DNA from: Peduovirus P24E6b
Length of the DNA: 31,128 nucleotides
Direction: 5' to 3' (one strand)
Sequence record: NC_049389.1
Both the position numbers and the translations under genes were made by a program. Below are positions 11,863-30,706 of this stretch, one piece after another. The notes under the pieces were generated by a model. It was not told the DNA's origin. It did no database searches and saw only the letters and a program-made list of their open reading frames with translations. Within the stretch, counting starts at the first letter, position 1, and the number at the start of each line of letters is the position of its first letter.

Positions 11863-14622
11863 ATGAGCACGAAATTTAAAACCGTTATCACTACTGCCGG
11901 AGCCGCAAAGCTGGCTGCCGCCACTGTCCCCGGCGGGAAAAAAGTAAACCTGTCTGCAATGGCCGTGGGTGACGGTAATGGCAAATTACCGGTGCCGGAT
12001 GCCGGTCAGACGAAACTGGTGCATGAGGTCTGGCGTCACGCTCTGAATAAAGTCAGTGTGGATAATAAGAATAAAAACTATATTGTGGCTGAACTGGTTG
12101 TTCCGCCAGAAGTGGGCGGCTTCTGGATGCGTGAGCTTGGTCTGTATGACGATGCCGGAACACTGATTGCGGTATCCAACATGGCAGAAAGCTATAAGCC
12201 AGAACTGGCTGAAGGCTCCGGACGTGCGCAGACCTGCCGCATGGTTATTATTCTCAGCAACGTGGCGTCCGTTGAGCTGAGTATTGATGCCAGCACAGTG
12301 ATGGCTACGCAGGATTACGTCGATGACAAAATCGCAGAGCATGAGCAGTCCCGCCGCCATCCTGACGCCACGCTGACAGAAAAAGGTTTTACTCAGTTAA
12401 GCAGTGCAACAAACAGCACCAGTGAAAAGCTGGCGGCAACGCCAAAAGCGGTCAAGGCTGCGAATGACAACGCAAATTCACGTCTGGCGAAAAATCAGAA
12501 CGGTGCAGATATCCAGGATAAATCAGCTTTTCTGGACAATGTTGGCGTTACCAGCCTGACGTTTATGAAAAACAATGGCGAAATGCCGCTTGATGCTGAT
12601 CTGAATACGTTTGGTCCTGTTAAGGCTTATTCAGGTATCTGGTCTAAAGCAACATCCACCAACGCAACACTGGAGAAAAATTTCCCGGAAGATAATGCTG
12701 TCGGTGTGCTTGAGGTTTTTGCTGCCGGCAATTTTGCAGGTACGCAACGCTTTACCACGAGAGACGGCAATGTATACATGCGTAAACTCGCCAATAGGTG
12801 GAATGGCACTGATGGTCCGTGGGGCGTATGGCGTCACACTCAATCTGCTACCCGCCCTTTGAGTACGACTATAGACCTGAATACGCTTGGAGCCGCCGAG
12901 CATCTTGGTTTATGGCGTAACAGTAGCTCAGCTATAGCTTCATATGAACGCAATTATCCAGAGGAAGGCGGCTTTGCTCAGGGGATGCTTGAGATCCTCG
13001 AAGGCGGAAATTATGGAAGAACGCAACGTTATACCACTCGCCGTGGAAATATGTATGTCCGCTGTCTTGCGGCAAGCTGGGATGCATCAAATCCGCAGTG
13101 GGAACCGTGGTTAAGAGTCGGTCATCAGTCAGAGAGTCGTTATTACGAAGGTGATTTAAATGTTCTAACCGACCCCGGTATTTACAGTGTTACAGGAAAG
13201 GCAACAAACGGTCCGATGCTGGACACCGTTGGCGCGACACTACTTGGGATACTGGAAGTAATCAGACGTTTTGATGGTGTGTCTGTCTGGCAGCGTTACA
13301 CAACCACAGGGAAATCAGAAACCACACAGGGACGCACTTTTGAGCGCGTCTACGCCGGGAGCAAATGGACCGAATGGCGAGAAGTATATAACTCCTTTTC
13401 GTTGCCTCTGAATCTGGGCATCGGTGGCGCAGTGGCAAAACTATCCAGTCTGGACTGGCAGACCTACGATTTTGTGCCGGGCAGTCTGATAACCGTGCGG
13501 CTTGATAACATGACCAACATTCCCGACGGTATGGACTGGGGCGTCATTGATGGCAACCTGATAAACATCGCAGTTGGTCCGAGTGATGATTCCGGTACGG
13601 GGCGCTCAATGCATGTATGGCGCAGCACTGTAAGTAAAGCGAACTACCGCTTTTTTATGGTGCGTATTTCAGGAAATCCGGGAAGCCGCACGATCACGAC
13701 AAGACGTGTGCCAATTATCGACGAAGCTCAGACATGGGGCGCGAAACAGACATTCAGTGCTGGCCTTTCTGGTGAACTGTCCGGCAATGCGGCGACAGCA
13801 ACAAAGCTGAAAACAGCCCGTAAAATTAATAACGTTTCGTTTGATGGAACATCAGATATTAACTTGACGCCGAAAAATATTGGTGCATTTGCTTCAGGAA
13901 AAACAGGAGACACCGTTGCGAATGATAAAGCCGTTGGGTGGAACTGGAGTAGCGGAGCCTATAACGCAACTACTGGTGGGGCATCAACGTTAATTCTTCA
14001 TTTTAATATCGGTGAAGGAAGTTGTCCCGCCGCCCAGTTCCGCGTTAATTATAAGAACGGCGGTATTTTTTATCGTTCTGCTCGTGACGGTTACGGATTC
14101 GAGGCTGACTGGTCTGAGTTTTATACCACAACGCGAAAACCTACAGCGGGAGATGTCGGTGCACTGCCGTTATCTGGTGGTCAATTGAATGGTGCTCTGG
14201 GTATAGGAACATCCAGTGCTCTTGGCGGTAATTCGATTGTTTTGGGTGATAATGACACGGGCTTTAAACAAAATGGTGATGGTAATCTGGATGTTTATGC
14301 TAATAGCGTCCATATTATGCGCTTTGTCTCGGGAAGTATTCAAAGTAATAAAACCATAAATATTACGGGGCGTGTTAATCCCTCGGATTACGGTAACTTT
14401 GATTCCCGCTATGTCCGGGATATCCGGCTTGGTGGTGCTGCCACATACAAACCTGCGAACAATGGCATGACATGGACACATCAGGCACCGTCCGGGTGTG
14501 TATATTCCGGCATTATTGTTCAGGATACCGGCTCAAACTCTGCCGATAACATTGGTGGTGTATATTACAGGCCGGTTCAGAAATACATTAACGGGACATG
14601 GTATAACGTGGCGCAGGTATAA
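11863..14622 (+). CDS. H: tail fiber protein, P2 gpH-like with mosaic central/distal region
   Basis: 919 aa. N-terminal ~190 aa and C-terminal ~150 aa (ALGGNSIVLGDNDTGFKQNGDG..., ...YINGTWYNVAQV) resemble P2 H as I recall. The central part is lower GC and contains three tandem ~80-aa repeats. Confidence 0.85.
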   Translation: MSTKFKTVITTAGAAKLAAATVPGGKKVNLSAMAVGDGNGKLPVPDAGQTKLVHEVWRHALNKVSVDNKNKNYIVAELVVPPEVGGFWMRELGLYDDAGTLIAVSNMAESYKPELAEGSGRAQTCRMVIILSNVASVELSIDASTVMATQDYVDDKIAEHEQSRRHPDATLTEKGFTQLSSATNSTSEKLAATPKAVKAANDNANSRLAKNQNGADIQDKSAFLDNVGVTSLTFMKNNGEMPLDADLNTFGPVKAYSGIWSKATSTNATLEKNFPEDNAVGVLEVFAAGNFAGTQRFTTRDGNVYMRKLANRWNGTDGPWGVWRHTQSATRPLSTTIDLNTLGAAEHLGLWRNSSSAIASYERNYPEEGGFAQGMLEILEGGNYGRTQRYTTRRGNMYVRCLAASWDASNPQWEPWLRVGHQSESRYYEGDLNVLTDPGIYSVTGKATNGPMLDTVGATLLGILEVIRRFDGVSVWQRYTTTGKSETTQGRTFERVYAGSKWTEWREVYNSFSLPLNLGIGGAVAKLSSLDWQTYDFVPGSLITVRLDNMTNIPDGMDWGVIDGNLINIAVGPSDDSGTGRSMHVWRSTVSKANYRFFMVRISGNPGSRTITTRRVPIIDEAQTWGAKQTFSAGLSGELSGNAATATKLKTARKINNVSFDGTSDINLTPKNIGAFASGKTGDTVANDKAVGWNWSSGAYNATTGGASTLILHFNIGEGSCPAAQFRVNYKNGGIFYRSARDGYGFEADWSEFYTTTRKPTAGDVGALPLSGGQLNGALGIGTSSALGGNSIVLGDNDTGFKQNGDGNLDVYANSVHIMRFVSGSIQSNKTINITGRVNPSDYGNFDSRYVRDIRLGGAATYKPANNGMTWTHQAPSGCVYSGIIVQDTGSNSADNIGGVYYRPVQKYINGTWYNVAQV

Positions 14623-14625
14623 TTT

Positions 14626-15153
14626 ATGCAGCATTTAAAAAATATTACGGCGGGTAATCCAAAAACGGTTGAACAATATCAATTGACAAAGGGTTTTGAT
14701 GTTGTCTGGTTTTTTTCAGAAGATGGTAAGAACTGGTACGAAGAACAAAAGTATTTTGCTGATGACACGATAAAAATAGCGTACGACAAAGATAATATTA
14801 TCCGCTATGTGGAAAAGGATGTGACAGCTATCAGACCGGATGGATTAAGTGTTGTTGAAGTGGCGGATATTACTGCTAACCGACGGGCGGACATTTCAGG
14901 GGGCTGGATGTTTAAGGACGGCAAAGTGATTAAACGCATTTATACGGCAGAGGAATTGCTGCAGCAGGCAGAAAACCGGAAAGCCAGACTTCTTGCAGAT
15001 GCTGAATCCGTGATTTTGCCGCTGGAGCGCGCGGTCAGACTGAACATGGCAACAGATGAGGAGCGTAGCCGACTGGATGCATGGGAGCGTTACAGCGTTC
15101 TGGTCAGTCGTGTGGATCCTGCAAATCCTGAATGGCCGGAAATGCCGCAATAA
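14626..15153 (+). CDS. G: tail fiber assembly (chaperone) protein, P2 gpG-like
   Basis: 175-aa ORF immediately after the tail fiber gene; size and position match P2 G. Confidence 0.8.
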
Positions 15154-15374
15154 GTTGTATGATCTCTGGAGTGAGCAAACATATCTATGGCACAGAGTAA
15201 AGCCTAATCTGACAGGCCGCTCTGTGTCTGGAGTAGATTTTAGTAAAGCATTATTTTATTAGTGCAAATTCTAATCAATACATTTTATGTATATGATATC
15301 CTGCAGACTTTAATGACTTGGTTTAGGCTAACCAGATAACACTGAAGGAATATTTTTGATAATTAAGGTGCGGT

Positions 15375-15968
15375 ATGTTTACTAAGCGACGATTAAAAAA
15401 TATTAACTGGGAGGCAAGTTCAGTGATTCTTGCCATGGTTCTCTTTGTTGGAAATATATTTTATACAAATCATCGTGATGATATAAGCATGGAGGCTGAG
15501 AGGGACAGTATCAGAACAATGTTTGCATATGAAATCGCTAATAACCATCGCGCTCTCACTTTTCTTGATAAAACGAGATATATTGGCTTTGACGAAAATT
15601 CGGAGCATTTTGTTGGCGAGCCTTTTGCCATTAATGTCAAATCATTAGGGGGGCCTCGCTTACAGATTGCATTAAACCAGACTGATAAAGTGTTTAAATC
15701 CTACTTCAGCGAATTAAGTAAGCTTGATAAAGAGGATGTTACTCTTCTTATGGACTATTACCATGAGCAAAGCATCCTGCTGGAGCGTGTAAAATCTACG
15801 TTACAGAAGATGAAAAGTGGTAATGATATTAAAGTTGATATTGATGGTTACTTATTAGAAGAACACTTCATGAATGAGCTTAATCTTTCTAATATTTTGC
15901 TTAAACGCTATAGCCATTTGTTGTCACAACACGCCAAAGAACATAAAACAAAAGATTTACATAATTGA
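15375..15968 (+). CDS. hypothetical membrane-anchored protein encoded in AT-rich cargo at the P2 Z/fun position
   Basis: 197-aa ORF with AAGGTG Shine-Dalgarno 5 nt upstream; N-terminal hydrophobic segment (SVILAMVLFVGNIFY), then a charged, probably helical soluble domain. Surrounded by AT-rich non-coding DNA unlike the backbone. No recognisable family from sequence alone. Confidence 0.6.
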   Translation: MFTKRRLKNINWEASSVILAMVLFVGNIFYTNHRDDISMEAERDSIRTMFAYEIANNHRALTFLDKTRYIGFDENSEHFVGEPFAINVKSLGGPRLQIALNQTDKVFKSYFSELSKLDKEDVTLLMDYYHEQSILLERVKSTLQKMKSGNDIKVDIDGYLLEEHFMNELNLSNILLKRYSHLLSQHAKEHKTKDLHN

Positions 15969-16174
15969 TAATCTGCTAATGGTTATTCATGGGGTAACTA
16001 TGTTTTATATGTAATCCAACTCAGATGAATTATTGATTCTGGATAATAACCGCAGAGCGGCATATACCCTGACAGGCAAATGTCCGCTTCTTGTTCAAAG
16101 CAGACCGTCAGATTTGATAACTTTTGGGCTATGTAAATTGTCAGTCGGAAAATGAGTGAGTTCAAATCAGGACA

Positions 16175-16197
16175 GGCGGGCGAATTGCCCGCCTTTT
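16175..16197 (+). terminator. rho-independent terminator downstream of the cargo gene
   Basis: GGCGGGC-gaatt-GCCCGCC perfect 7-bp GC-rich stem followed by TTTTCTTT. Confidence 0.7.
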
Positions 16198-16297
16198 CTT
16201 TATCTGTTGTTTCATCCACTGACCAGCCAGGTCAAATAGCGTCTCATGCTCTGCACAACAGAAAATAGTTGCACCCATTAACCACGGAGTTAAACGG

Positions 16298-17488
16298 ATG
16301 AGTGACTATCATCACGGCGTGCAGGTGCTGGAGATTAACGACGGCACCCGCGTCATTTCCACCGTATCCACTGCCATTGTCGGCATGATCTGCACGGCCA
16401 GCGATGCGGATGCGGAAACCTTCCCCCTCAATAAACCTGTGCTGATTACCAATGTGCAGAGCGCAATTGCAAAGGCCGGTAAAAAAGGCACGCTGGCGGC
16501 ATCGTTGCAGGCCATCGCAGACCAGTCAAAACCGGTCACCGTTGTCGTGCGCGTGGAAGACGGCACCGGTGATGACGAGGAAACGAAACTCGCGCAGACC
16601 GTTTCCAATATCATCGGCACCACCGACGAAAACGGTCAGTATACCGGACTGAAAGCCCTGCTGGCGGCAGAGTCGGTAACCGGTGTTAAACCGCGTATTC
16701 TCGGCGTGCCGGGACTGGATACCAAAGAGGTGGCTGTTGCACTGGCATCAGTCTGTCAGAAGCTGCGCGCTTTCGGGTATATCAGCGCATGGGGCTGTAA
16801 AACCATTTCCGAGGTGAAAGCTTACCGCCAGAATTTCAGCCAGCGTGAGCTGATGGTCATCTGGCCGGATTTCCTCGCATGGGATACTGTCACCAGTACC
16901 ACCGCCACCGCGTATGCCACCGCCCGTGCGCTGGGGCTGCGCGCTAAAATCGACCAGGAGCAGGGCTGGCATAAAACGCTGTCCAATGTCGGGGTGAACG
17001 GTGTTACCGGCATCAGCGCATCTGTATTCTGGGATTTGCAGGAGTCCGGCACCGATGCTGACCTGCTTAACGAGTCAGGCGTCACAACGCTGATTCGCCG
17101 TGACGGTTTCCGGTTCTGGGGTAACCGTACCTGCTCTGATGACCCGCTGTTCCTCTTTGAAAACTACACCCGCACCGCGCAGGTGCTGGCCGACACGATG
17201 GCTGAGGCGCACATGTGGGCGGTGGACAAGCCCATCACCGCAACGCTGATTCGCGACATCGTTGACGGCATCAATGCCAAATTCCGTGAGCTGAAAACAA
17301 ACGGCTATATCGTGGATGCGACCTGCTGGTTCAGCGAAGAATCCAACGATGCGGAAACCCTCAAGGCCGGAAAACTGTATATCGACTACGACTATACCCC
17401 GGTGCCTCCTCTCGAAAACCTGACCCTGCGCCAGCGTATTACCGATAAATACCTGGCAAATCTGGTCACCTCGGTTAACAGCAATTAA
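16298..17488 (+). CDS. FI: contractile tail sheath protein, P2 gpFI-like
   Basis: 396-aa ORF heading the FI-FII-E-T-U-D block; length matches P2 FI. Confidence 0.85.
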   Translation: MSDYHHGVQVLEINDGTRVISTVSTAIVGMICTASDADAETFPLNKPVLITNVQSAIAKAGKKGTLAASLQAIADQSKPVTVVVRVEDGTGDDEETKLAQTVSNIIGTTDENGQYTGLKALLAAESVTGVKPRILGVPGLDTKEVAVALASVCQKLRAFGYISAWGCKTISEVKAYRQNFSQRELMVIWPDFLAWDTVTSTTATAYATARALGLRAKIDQEQGWHKTLSNVGVNGVTGISASVFWDLQESGTDADLLNESGVTTLIRRDGFRFWGNRTCSDDPLFLFENYTRTAQVLADTMAEAHMWAVDKPITATLIRDIVDGINAKFRELKTNGYIVDATCWFSEESNDAETLKAGKLYIDYDYTPVPPLENLTLRQRITDKYLANLVTSVNSN

Positions 17489-29002: not shown

Positions 29003-29117
29003 ATGGTGTCGGAACATAATATTTTCAGGTGTTCAAAGAGTTTGTTCTGATGTTCTTGCTATTTTTGTTTCTTTTGATGAAAATGGCGTCTTTAAAATTG
29101 GTTAAAAGGTGTGTTGT

Positions 29118-29606
29118 ATGGATGGTTTATGGGAAAAAATATCGTCTTATAATATATTTAACAATCTCTTTCCCGGTGCTTTGTTTATTTATTTGTTTGA
29201 GCGGGCAACCAATGTGATATTATCCACAGATGATGTTGTTAAGAATGTGGTACTTTACTATTTTACGGGGATAATTATCGGAAGGATTGGGTCTATTGTT
29301 TTTGAGCCTGTGTTGAAATTTTTGGGGCTGGTAAAATTTGTTCCATATGAGGAATATATCTCAGCATGTAGAAAGGATAATAAAATAGAGCTTCTTCAAG
29401 AAACTGCAAATATGTATAGGACGTTATTCTCTATGTCCTTGGTTTTTTTGTTTTCTTTGTTTTTTGTTTCGTTTGTAGTTGGTGGTGATTACATGGCGTC
29501 GAAATGGATTTCATTGTTTTTGATTTTTGTTTTTATTGTGTCGTACGTTAAGCAAATTAAGTTTATTACATTAAGAGTGAGTAAGGCTAATAATAAGCTG
29601 CCCTAA
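29118..29606 (+). CDS. hypothetical polytopic membrane protein in AT-rich cargo after gene A
   Basis: ATG at 29118 (ORF track begins at GTG 29109); 163 aa with about four hydrophobic helices (FPGALFIYLF, VVLYYFTGIIIGRIGSIVF, LFSMSLVFLFSLFFVSFVVGG, WISLFLIFVFIVSYV); local GC about 30%. Confidence 0.6.
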   Translation: MDGLWEKISSYNIFNNLFPGALFIYLFERATNVILSTDDVVKNVVLYYFTGIIIGRIGSIVFEPVLKFLGLVKFVPYEEYISACRKDNKIELLQETANMYRTLFSMSLVFLFSLFFVSFVVGGDYMASKWISLFLIFVFIVSYVKQIKFITLRVSKANNKLP

Positions 29607-29614
29607 GGCAGCTT
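29595..29614. terminator. hairpin between convergent cargo genes (probable bidirectional terminator)
   Basis: AAGCTGCC-ctaa-GGCAGCTT perfect 8-bp stem; the + gene stop codon lies in the loop and the minus-strand gene stop is at 29621-29623. Confidence 0.55.
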
Positions 29615-29620
29615 AACGAA

Positions 29621-30706
29621 TTATTCTTCAGTCTTATAACTCCTTGCGTATGAGCGTGGGGTGACTGCAGTCCAGCCATCTCTGGCGGGGGCATTACTAG
29701 AATGGCGTTTATTGGTGCCTTCTGTGGCGACTACTTTGGCTCCACGCCTTGTAAAAGCATTAATGACCGCTTGATGAGGGTGTTTATCGGAATCCGGTGC
29801 GCATGATATAAATGCACAAACACCACTTCTTCCTCCTTCGCTTACAATATTTCCAACGAGCTTATTTAGCACCGCTGGACCGATGTTTCTCCTGCTTCCA
29901 TGGTGGGGCACTTGAATAAATGATAATGAGTTATTATTTATATGATCAGCAGCCATATCTAATGCAGTTATTCCTGCATCACCTGTAAATACTAGTGTTT
30001 TATTGTCAATTTCAATTTTTAATATAACGCTTGAATTGTTTTGTGCAGTAGTTGTGTCCTTGTCATCAATTCCCTCATCAGAGAACCAATCAGCAATATA
30101 CTCGACTTGTTCTTTGGCTTTCTCAAAAAAGTAGTTATATGCATCTGTACCACTGGTTGCAGTTGTTTCTGCTTTTTCAGGCATTCTTGCAAAATCGGGG
30201 ATTAATGTTTCATAGTATGCTTGTGTTGGTCCAATAACAACCAGTTTAGAATTGTCCCAAGTCCTGCCTTGAAAAGGCTCCTTAATTTCTATTCCTTTTT
30301 TTTTCGCTGATTTGACGGCATCATAGGCTTTTTGTAGATTATCTTGTATACGTCTGGCAATACTTGCATCTGTTATCCTTCCATCAGCAAATTCCTGCGC
30401 GAGATTTTCATTATGCTCCCAAGGCTGGTGAATCCAGAACTCTTTGACTTCCGCATTCTCAATCACATGCTCAAGGCCGCCAGCATGGTCGCTATCTGGA
30501 TGCGTGGATATGAGTAAGTCAATAGTATTTGTATGATAGTATTTCTGTAAATGTTCAATTATTTGTGGACCAGTGCTTGCGTACCCCGCATCAATTACGA
30601 CAACTTTTTGCTCTGCTCTTGTTCCGTGGAGGTTGCCCCATCTTATGCAGATAGCATCTCCACTTTTTTTTTCTCCAACTGCTAAGAAATCAACTTCGTA
30701 ACCCAT
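29621..30706 (-). CDS. metallo-beta-lactamase-fold hydrolase, ComEC-like (predicted nuclease) in cargo at the P2 tin/old position
   Basis: 361 aa; motifs STHPDSDHAGG (HxDxDH-type MBL motif II, nt ~30485-30505) and VPHHGS near the C-terminus as in ComEC/Rec2-type MBL domains; AAGGG Shine-Dalgarno 8 nt upstream; AT-rich codon usage unlike the backbone. Confidence 0.65.
   Translation of the reverse strand: MGYEVDFLAVGEKKSGDAICIRWGNLHGTRAEQKVVVIDAGYASTGPQIIEHLQKYYHTNTIDLLISTHPDSDHAGGLEHVIENAEVKEFWIHQPWEHNENLAQEFADGRITDASIARRIQDNLQKAYDAVKSAKKKGIEIKEPFQGRTWDNSKLVVIGPTQAYYETLIPDFARMPEKAETTATSGTDAYNYFFEKAKEQVEYIADWFSDEGIDDKDTTTAQNNSSVILKIEIDNKTLVFTGDAGITALDMAADHINNNSLSFIQVPHHGSRRNIGPAVLNKLVGNIVSEGGRSGVCAFISCAPDSDKHPHQAVINAFTRRGAKVVATEGTNKRHSSNAPARDGWTAVTPRSYARSYKTEE

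Follow-up and report, generated by a model that had tools for sequence, protein, structure and literature searches.

A foreign single-gene cargo encoding a predicted membrane-anchored helical bundle in the Z/fun slot of the P2-like phage P24E6b

What occupies the AT-rich interval between the tail fiber assembly gene G and the tail sheath gene FI of Peduovirus P24E6b (NC_049389.1), and what might its one substantial gene do for the phage or its lysogen? The stretch of DNA analyzed here (the window, 31,128 nucleotides) is a near-complete P2-like (Peduovirus) genome with the gene order Q, P, O ... H, G, FI, FII, E, T of P2, and the interval between G and FI (15154–16297) matches Escherichia phages D8 and 12W at 100% identity. 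It corresponds to the Z/fun slot, a known site in P2-like phages where cargo lies between inverted repeats. Its occupant is a foreign cargo with one gene, encoding a 197-amino-acid protein with a single predicted membrane anchor, which is under purifying selection and whose relatives travel alone between the hotspots of several types of mobile element. Already known are the hotspot with its inverted repeats and the view of it as a site of exclusion genes, and the protein family has been catalogued but is uncharacterized; a role in excluding other phages at the cell envelope is tentatively proposed for it below.

A preliminary description of the interval, made from the sequence alone, had assigned it to the P2 Z/fun position, and comparison with related phages agrees: the DNA between G and FI is variable, is bounded by repeats matching those of GenBank records AJ512685 and AJ512677, and is replaced by unrelated cargo or by none in relatives. 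The open reading frame (ORF), the G and FI flanks, the hydrophobic anchor, the terminator, and the compositional break were likewise all found where that description had put them. The features of the locus, in the coordinates of the window, are as follows.

14626–15153, plus strand: tail fiber assembly gene G, the left conserved flank (Pfam Caudo_TAP, 3.1e-34)
15126–15238, no strand: left inverted repeat of the P2 "Z region" (placed by alignment with the feature of that name in GenBank AJ512685/AJ512677)
15185–15232, plus strand: stable, conserved hairpin without a U-tract, just 3' of the G stop (RNA fold −22.6 kcal/mol, z = −4.1)
15227–16082, plus strand: foreign cargo of 148-bp AT-rich leader, ORF, and 114-bp trailer (P2/Wphi homology ends at 15226 and resumes at 16083)
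15365–15370, plus strand: ribosome-binding site AAGGTG, 4 nt 5' of the ATG
15375–15968, plus strand: 197-amino-acid ORF with ATG start, a member of phrog_3829 (family match, dN/dS, and conservation)
15408–15467, plus strand: codons of the single predicted transmembrane helix, residues ~12–31 (the only hydrophobic segment)
16052–16077, plus strand: direct but diverged copy of the left repeat's inner end (repeat search; spacing read from the sequence)
16083–16173, no strand: right inverted repeat of the Z region, core 16096–16114 (matches the "right inverted repeat" feature of AJ512685)
16174–16202, plus strand: rho-independent terminator, stem-loop 16174–16194 plus T-run (−20.1 kcal/mol, z = −4.5)
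16205–16274, plus strand: region of late promoter pF, with predicted Ogr activator site at ~16205–16230 and transcription start at ~16272–16274 (transferred by alignment from the annotation of the P2 record)
16298–17488, plus strand: tail sheath gene FI, the right conserved flank (Pfam Phage_sheath_1, Phage_sheath_1C, and Gp18_domIII_N)

The borders of the cargo were drawn from BLAST searches and alignment against P2 and Wphi. Its G+C content (GC) of 0.346 is the minimum among all 856-bp windows of the 31 kb (mean 0.521, sd 0.064), a compositional break far beyond chance, and together with the loss of homology over 15227–16082 this bears out the earlier view of a foreign AT-rich cargo with a single gene. 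The island had been drawn as the whole of 15154–16297; foreign DNA does lie inside these limits, but the alignment to P2 and Wphi confines it to the cargo proper. The AT-rich leader of about 220 bp needs the same correction, as only 148 bp of it (GC 0.30) are cargo and the first 73 of the 221 bp (GC 0.47) are conserved left inverted repeat. This repeat overlaps the 3' end of G, whose DNA is 77% identical to its P2 and Wphi counterparts, and is itself conserved in both phages; its best-matching core (15206–15224) pairs with 16096–16114 in the right repeat to form the longest inverted repeat of the region (19 nt, 79% complementary), and the right repeat is 89–95% identical in P2 and Wphi. At the right border of the cargo, the pattern GCAGAG-N11-CTGACAGGC (16052–16077) echoes CACAGAG-N11-CTGACAGGC at 15191–15217 with an equal spacing of 11 nt. 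The 9-mer repeat by itself is at chance expectation but the combined pattern at a cargo border is not, and the direct copy is possibly a recombination scar. Among phages, cargos are found in the slot in either orientation, which would fit inversion or exchange by recombination between the repeats.

The contents of the slot differ widely between P2-like phages. In P2, it holds fun(Z) (528 amino acids, minus strand), whose product blocks T5 according to a note in the P2 GenBank record, and in Wphi it holds orf44, while phage 9W carries a 251-amino-acid ORF on the minus strand, 569R9 a 183-amino-acid ORF, 11W the remnants of pseudogenes, and P2-EC31 the Shedu protein SduA (9e-163). Fun(Z) and Shedu are proven anti-phage genes. 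The locus has been described as a second defense-enriched locus of P2 (Vassallo et al., PMC9519451) and as the Z/fun hotspot (bioRxiv 10.1101/2024.10.15.618418). The slot is not reserved for defense genes, because in the Yersinia phage vB_YpM_115 (OR545056, 1–3461) it contains genes for a LysR-type regulator and a NepI-like purine ribonucleoside efflux pump, along with a hypothetical gene. The cargo of P24E6b is absent from P2, Wphi, and the cargo-less Yersinia phage P37; full-length copies occur in 11 phage records and among 5426 complete E. coli genomes in 201. These 201 make up about one-fifth of the 1018 genomes in which some part of the query finds a match, most of them matching only the ~220-bp right-hand backbone. 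In P37 (MT239398, 827–960), the G stop is followed by six bases and then by the terminator hairpin and pF, and since both repeats are missing along with the cargo, repeats and cargo behave as one inserted module. The receptor-binding module adjoining the slot is itself mosaic, in line with published accounts of the hotspot: the 3' part of H and the whole of G (13800–15226) have a lower GC of 0.43–0.45, and H encodes 919 amino acids here versus 669 in P2.

The 197-amino-acid ORF is the sole substantial ORF of the interval, in which a search for RNA genes and tRNA found none. Its product matches phrog_3829 over the full profile (E = 2e-137, residues 1–197 on positions 1–197 of 197). The family, which was collected by three database searches and an exhaustive profile search of 1.84 billion representative proteins, falls into ~80 clusters when grouped at 90% identity and into 29 at 50%, and the 29 relatives recovered by the exhaustive search are all stand-alone proteins of 43–218 amino acids (165–218 when full length) with no extra domain or informative fusion. 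Every member with a named source comes from the Enterobacterales (Escherichia, Salmonella, Enterobacter, Kosakonia, Pluralibacter, Pantoea, Proteus, and Providencia), and length and architecture are kept across Enterobacteriaceae, Erwiniaceae, and Morganellaceae; the exact protein sequence occurs on 744 contigs, and truncated family fragments of 91–165 amino acids also occur in databases. Pfam gave no match to the protein, NCBIfam nothing meaningful, and the PDB no sequence relative. Homologs at NCBI are named "lysogenic conversion protein," and "putative lysogenic conversion protein" also stands on the unrelated ORFs of AJ512677 and AJ512685; no NCBIfam model or paper backs the name and a literature search found no paper mentioning the family accessions, and it is treated here as a positional label and not as functional evidence.

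The ratio of nonsynonymous to synonymous substitution rates (dN/dS) is 0.14 against a Salmonella homolog, at a near-saturated dS of 1.7, and the ORF is therefore a real gene under purifying selection; among very close relatives, separated by few substitutions, the ratio is 0.5–0.7. Conservation of residues 10–16 supports the ATG start. The segment IRTMFAYEI (residues 46–54) is at least 90% conserved between branches that are 28% identical overall, and this conservation extends to every face of helix 1 about 15 residues past the membrane; R95, Y128, and Y129 are also conserved. The pattern suggests an interaction surface rather than the core of a bundle alone.

The membrane-anchored helical product of the preliminary description is supported by prediction. 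The protein has one hydrophobic segment only (residues ~12–31, Kyte-Doolittle 19-residue mean 1.54), the remainder being predicted helical, and a single strong hydrophobic helix with predicted membrane insertion occurs at this position in all 65 full-length homologs. AlphaFold2 gave a mean predicted local distance difference test score (pLDDT) of 61.5 with close homologs only, which improved to 81.6 (predicted template modeling score 0.72) once the 28%-identical Proteus branch was added to the alignment. In this model, the membrane helix runs unbroken into helix 1 (residues 12–66) of a compact four-helix bundle, with a less confident loop at 67–91. The best structural analogs with biological context are the sensor bundles of Tar, Tsr, PcaY, PilJ, and MCP2201 and the surface proteins OspC and Vsp (Foldseek E ≥ 0.085). 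The N-terminal tail is more positively charged than the flank following the helix in 62 of the 65 homologs, and in distant relatives it contains up to 8–10 Lys/Arg residues (for example, MAKTKKSSKARS...GKKIKWEA). Cysteines in the soluble domain are either lacking or, in all Proteus and Providencia (Morganellaceae) members, limited to the strict pair C82/C87, and the distant relatives P0095, P0099, and P0102 have a cysteine pair close to the C-terminus. The charge bias, the basic tails of distant relatives, and the cysteine pattern favor an N-in, C-out topology, in which the bundle is probably periplasmic.

Several more specific identities were considered for the protein and rejected. Homology to a structural or lysis protein, which the preliminary description had named as the outcome that would speak against it, was searched for and gave no significant match. 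A spanin or other lysis protein is opposed by the lack of a lipobox ORF in any frame within the gene or up to 250 bp 3' of it in seven loci, by the phage's own LysB/LysC ~7 kb away, and by the compact AlphaFold2 domain, which is not an extended coiled coil. For a holin, the Phage_holin_2_3 and Spore_YhaL matches (E ≥ 0.01) are not significant and are probably driven by the membrane helix. An effector of the HEPN type, like the Cas13b accessory membrane pore Csx28, would call for a conserved Rx4-6H motif: R47 is invariant, the nearest histidine (H58, 10 residues away) is glutamine in Proteus, and the fold match is generic. A sensor of the 4HB_MCP/TarH type was set aside on the lack of a Pfam match in 38 members at E ≤ 5, the single hydrophobic segment, and the lack of a signaling module.

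How the gene is expressed depends on the elements around it. The preliminary description had credited the island with a terminator of its own, a claim that does not survive comparison: the 16174–16194 hairpin also stands 3' of the minus-strand fun(Z) in P2 and of orf44 in Wphi, and because it is common to these phages with unrelated cargos and to P37, it is backbone and not island-owned. It is the V-operon terminator, which insulates pF and ends the V operon together with any upstream cargo. No terminator was found within the 114-bp cargo trailer. None was found between G and the ORF either, so that late-operon read-through would be at least as likely as independent expression. A sigma-70 promoter scan of the leader returned two sites versus 3.6 expected by chance, none of them convincing, and transcription from the single plus-strand match would begin within the ribosome-binding site. 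Terminator hairpins precede the homolog in P. ananatis and Proteus, where it thus needs a promoter of its own; the upstream sequences are not conserved. Of the independently expressed moron that had been proposed, the distinct composition and the absence from relatives are therefore retained, but not the terminator, and the promoter matches do not rise above chance.

Other signals in this part of the locus concern RNA and annotation. The hairpin at 15185–15232, whose sequence is kept in P2 and Wphi, may serve RNA stability or processing, or may act as a partial V-operon terminator. In the records of phages D8, 9W, and 11W, a minus-strand "hypothetical protein" of 38–45 amino acids is annotated at 16162–16278, over the terminator and pF, and is almost certainly a spurious call on regulatory DNA. 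In E. coli EECO1006 (NZ_CP090319, 1711–2408), the leader of the cargo is interrupted by an IS1 element, which lies after the left repeat and before the intact ORF and could either silence the gene or drive its expression.

The genomic contexts of relatives show that the gene travels alone between the hotspots of several element types. In Proteus and Providencia, the homolog occupies the old/tin position, the other hotspot of P2 (portal to gpA), with a CBASS cyclase and four-transmembrane effector, an AbiU-like AIPR protein, DarT-Macro, a NACHT ATPase, and PDC-S49 as neighbors; this P2-like prophage or remnant lies by ahpF/ahpC, and its defense cargo changes rapidly while the distant homolog stays fixed at the edge. 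In the P4-like satellites of Pantoea ananatis and Kosakonia, the homolog is directly 3' of the primase gene, preceded in the P. ananatis sequence by a terminator hairpin. Elsewhere, it adjoins a type II methylase and restriction enzyme at the end of a Salmonella lambdoid prophage, is carried on an Enterobacter IncFII plasmid, accompanies RadC and anti-restriction genes in a Pantoea island, and in a single case, at a contig end, adjoins a methyl-accepting chemotaxis gene. These locations make a strong "guilt by location" case that the gene takes part in conflicts between mobile elements; this is suggestive and not proof, because the Z slot also holds non-defense cargo. The old/tin position of the window itself, after gene A (29109–30706), is its other AT-rich hotspot (GC ~0.39) and contains a divergent gene pair matching the PADLOC candidate PDC-M48, namely M48A (165 amino acids, 7e-49) and M48B (360 amino acids, 9e-99), the latter with a metallo-beta-lactamase fold.

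The explanation tentatively preferred, at somewhat less than an even chance, is that the protein is an envelope-level phage-exclusion factor, whose periplasmic bundle blocks the genome entry of particular phages. The slot would then supply one horizontally mobile gene for a bitopic inner-membrane protein with a short positive N-terminal tail in the cytoplasm, one transmembrane helix, and a four-helix bundle of ~165 residues facing the periplasm. Transcripts would arise by late V-operon read-through and halt at the backbone terminator, and a weak promoter in the AT-rich leader may additionally drive expression in the prophage state. The protein would protect the lysogen, and the phage in its own late phase, at the cell envelope, where the bundle would bind either the tail-tip or ejection proteins of an incoming phage or a host inner-membrane or periplasmic component that these need, and superinfection by certain other phages would thereby be blocked at genome entry. 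A fuller version is doubtful, namely that the protein is a new envelope anti-phage factor of a kind not recognized before, directed against phages outside the standard panels (such as T5-like or other contractile-tailed phages) and one of few defense genes that P2 helper and P4 satellite have in common, with IRTMFAYEI as the contact surface for a phage ejection protein or host entry factor.

A number of observations weigh against this explanation. Two of the phages studied by Rousset et al. (2022) carry the cargo, namely AC1 (96.9% identical, ORF and leader intact) and SIDE7 (99.7%). In that study, E. coli C carrying one of four P2-like phages as a prophage was exposed to lambda, T4, P1, 186, CLB_P2, LF82_P8, AL505_P2, and T7, T5 not being included; protection was seen with AC1 alone (against lambda and LF82_P8), and the TIR system of the other hotspot gave the same result when cloned (Rousset et al., 2022). 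Since SIDE7 was unprotective and the protection by AC1 was reproduced by the TIR system, the gene at prophage expression levels is not a strong defense against this panel without T5. In PADLOC-DB v2.0.0 (5027 defense hidden Markov models), no family matched the protein at E ≤ 10, it showed no sequence or profile similarity to any exclusion or defense protein, and its sole PHROG has an unassigned function. The Foldseek matches are to generic helical bundles, none at E ≤ 0.001, and the fold search of the PDB and BFVD gave no match to exclusion proteins. The predicted topology draws on charge bias and the cysteine pattern, prophage-state expression remains putative as the scan found no credible promoter, the placement beside defense genes is suggestive only, and the slot also holds tail-fiber swaps, invertases, a regulator, and an efflux pump. 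The protein is a reasonable candidate for a phage-exclusion factor, its anti-phage function being putative.

The same observations can be read in other ways. The best structural analogs are periplasmic four-helix-bundle sensor domains and membrane-anchored surface bundles, and the protein might be a non-defense lysogenic-conversion factor, acting as a connector or decoy that binds a host sensor kinase, chemoreceptor, or envelope machine at its periplasmic domain and so retuning stress response, motility, or virulence. MzrA and SafA are small N-in, C-out proteins that modulate sensor kinases by contacts made in the periplasm. The LysR regulator and NepI pump in the Z slot, the homolog beside a methyl-accepting chemotaxis gene, and the lack of an attributable defense phenotype in AC1 and SIDE7 lysogens are all compatible with a connector, which is nonetheless unlikely: the fold similarity is generic, 4HB_MCP and TarH are absent from every one of the 38 members, the chemoreceptor neighbor is a lone case, and the repeated defense-system neighbors in P2 and P4 hotspots fit inter-phage conflict better. 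The preliminary description had named exclusion and abortive infection together as candidate roles; an exclusion or defense role remains plausible from the locations of relatives, but the probably periplasmic body of the protein makes abortive infection a less favored reading than exclusion at the envelope. As an abortive-infection or membrane-damaging effector, it would sense infection and oligomerize, permeabilizing or depolarizing the inner membrane or triggering early lysis, and the cell would die before phage release. Membrane proteins are common as suicide effectors, the four-transmembrane CBASS effector adjoins the Proteus homolog, the topology resembles that of class III holins such as T4 T, and weak Pfam matches to HP1-type holins occur in 7 of 38 members (best E 0.058). 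These matches fail every significance threshold and are probably due to the membrane helix alone, there is one hydrophobic segment with no second amphipathic or membrane segment and no conserved Rx4-6H, a stand-alone and probably periplasmic bundle of 165 residues has no obvious means to sense cytoplasmic infection, and many elements carry the gene constitutively without a partner antitoxin or regulator; such an effector is accordingly rated still less probable than a connector.

The position of the gene within the late operon raises a further possibility, namely a lytic-cycle accessory that is expressed by late read-through and adjusts the timing of lysis or spares the progeny wasteful adsorption to, or injection into, infected or lysed cells. 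The gene is oriented as the late genes are, late V-operon transcripts should include it as the first strong terminator lies 3' of the ORF and none stands between G and the ORF, and its architecture is superficially like that of i-spanins and class III holins. Against this, the family also occurs outside late operons (P4 satellites, the portal-gpA hotspot, a plasmid, and prophage ends), the gene is dispensable, since most P2-like phages are without it and the P37 slot is empty, and genes for holin, lysozyme, and LysA/B/C are already present in the phage; in the seven loci, no ORF for a lipoprotein partner lies inside the gene or downstream of it, and the predicted domain is a compact bundle instead of an extended coiled coil, all of which makes a lytic accessory improbable. 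That the gene is a neutral hitchhiker or decaying remnant without present function might be argued from the lack of a known function, the truncated fragments, the IS1 element in the leader of one E. coli strain, and the dN/dS of 0.5–0.7 among close relatives with few substitutions, but it is contradicted by purifying selection over long distances (dN/dS 0.14), by length and architecture conserved across three families, by the abundance of the exact sequence (744 contigs) and of the island (201 complete E. coli genomes), and by its independent capture by at least five kinds of element, and is hardly credible.

P2-like prophages are among the commonest in E. coli, and this cargo is among the commonest occupants of their second hotspot, while the spread of one family over P2, P4, and other elements is unusual. 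If envelope exclusion is true, the family would be a new and very small addition to prophage-encoded immunity, with a bearing on how phage susceptibility is predicted in clinical E. coli; if not, the family shows where "guilt by location" meets a limit in a hotspot of mixed purpose.

Among known systems, the small prophage-encoded inner-membrane proteins HK97 gp15 (YebO-like) and P22 SieA block genome entry and leave the outer-membrane receptor untouched, and HK97 gp15 is a foreign insert among tail genes with its own promoter and terminator (PMC3594210). The 197-amino-acid protein resembles them in being phage-encoded with a predicted cytoplasmic-membrane anchor, but HK97 gp15 is much smaller, no sequence, profile, or fold match to gp15 or SieA was found, and homology to the described exclusion families (HK97 gp15, P22 SieA, T4 Imm/Sp, and lactococcal Sie) was absent from Pfam, annotated PHROGs, and the PDB/BFVD fold searches. 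SNIPE, a nuclease bound to the membrane, cuts phage DNA during injection and contacts the tape-measure and host entry proteins (PMC13190303); in contrast, neither a nuclease nor any other enzymatic domain is present in the protein described here, most of which is probably periplasmic. The defense cargos of P2 hotspots (Shedu in P2-EC31, the PD-T4/T7/lambda systems of Vassallo et al., and old/tin) are likewise single genes or small operons between conserved phage genes, although the PADLOC v2 models, which include the PD systems and PDC candidates, do not match the protein at E ≤ 10. P2 Fun(Z) is larger (528 versus 197 amino acids) and encoded on the opposite strand; homology to Fun(Z) or to Wphi gp44 was not found (best BLASTP match to Fun(Z) E = 3.3 over 19 residues). 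The two genes are nevertheless alike in being non-essential cargo of the same slot, flanked by the same repeats and followed by the same terminator and pF.

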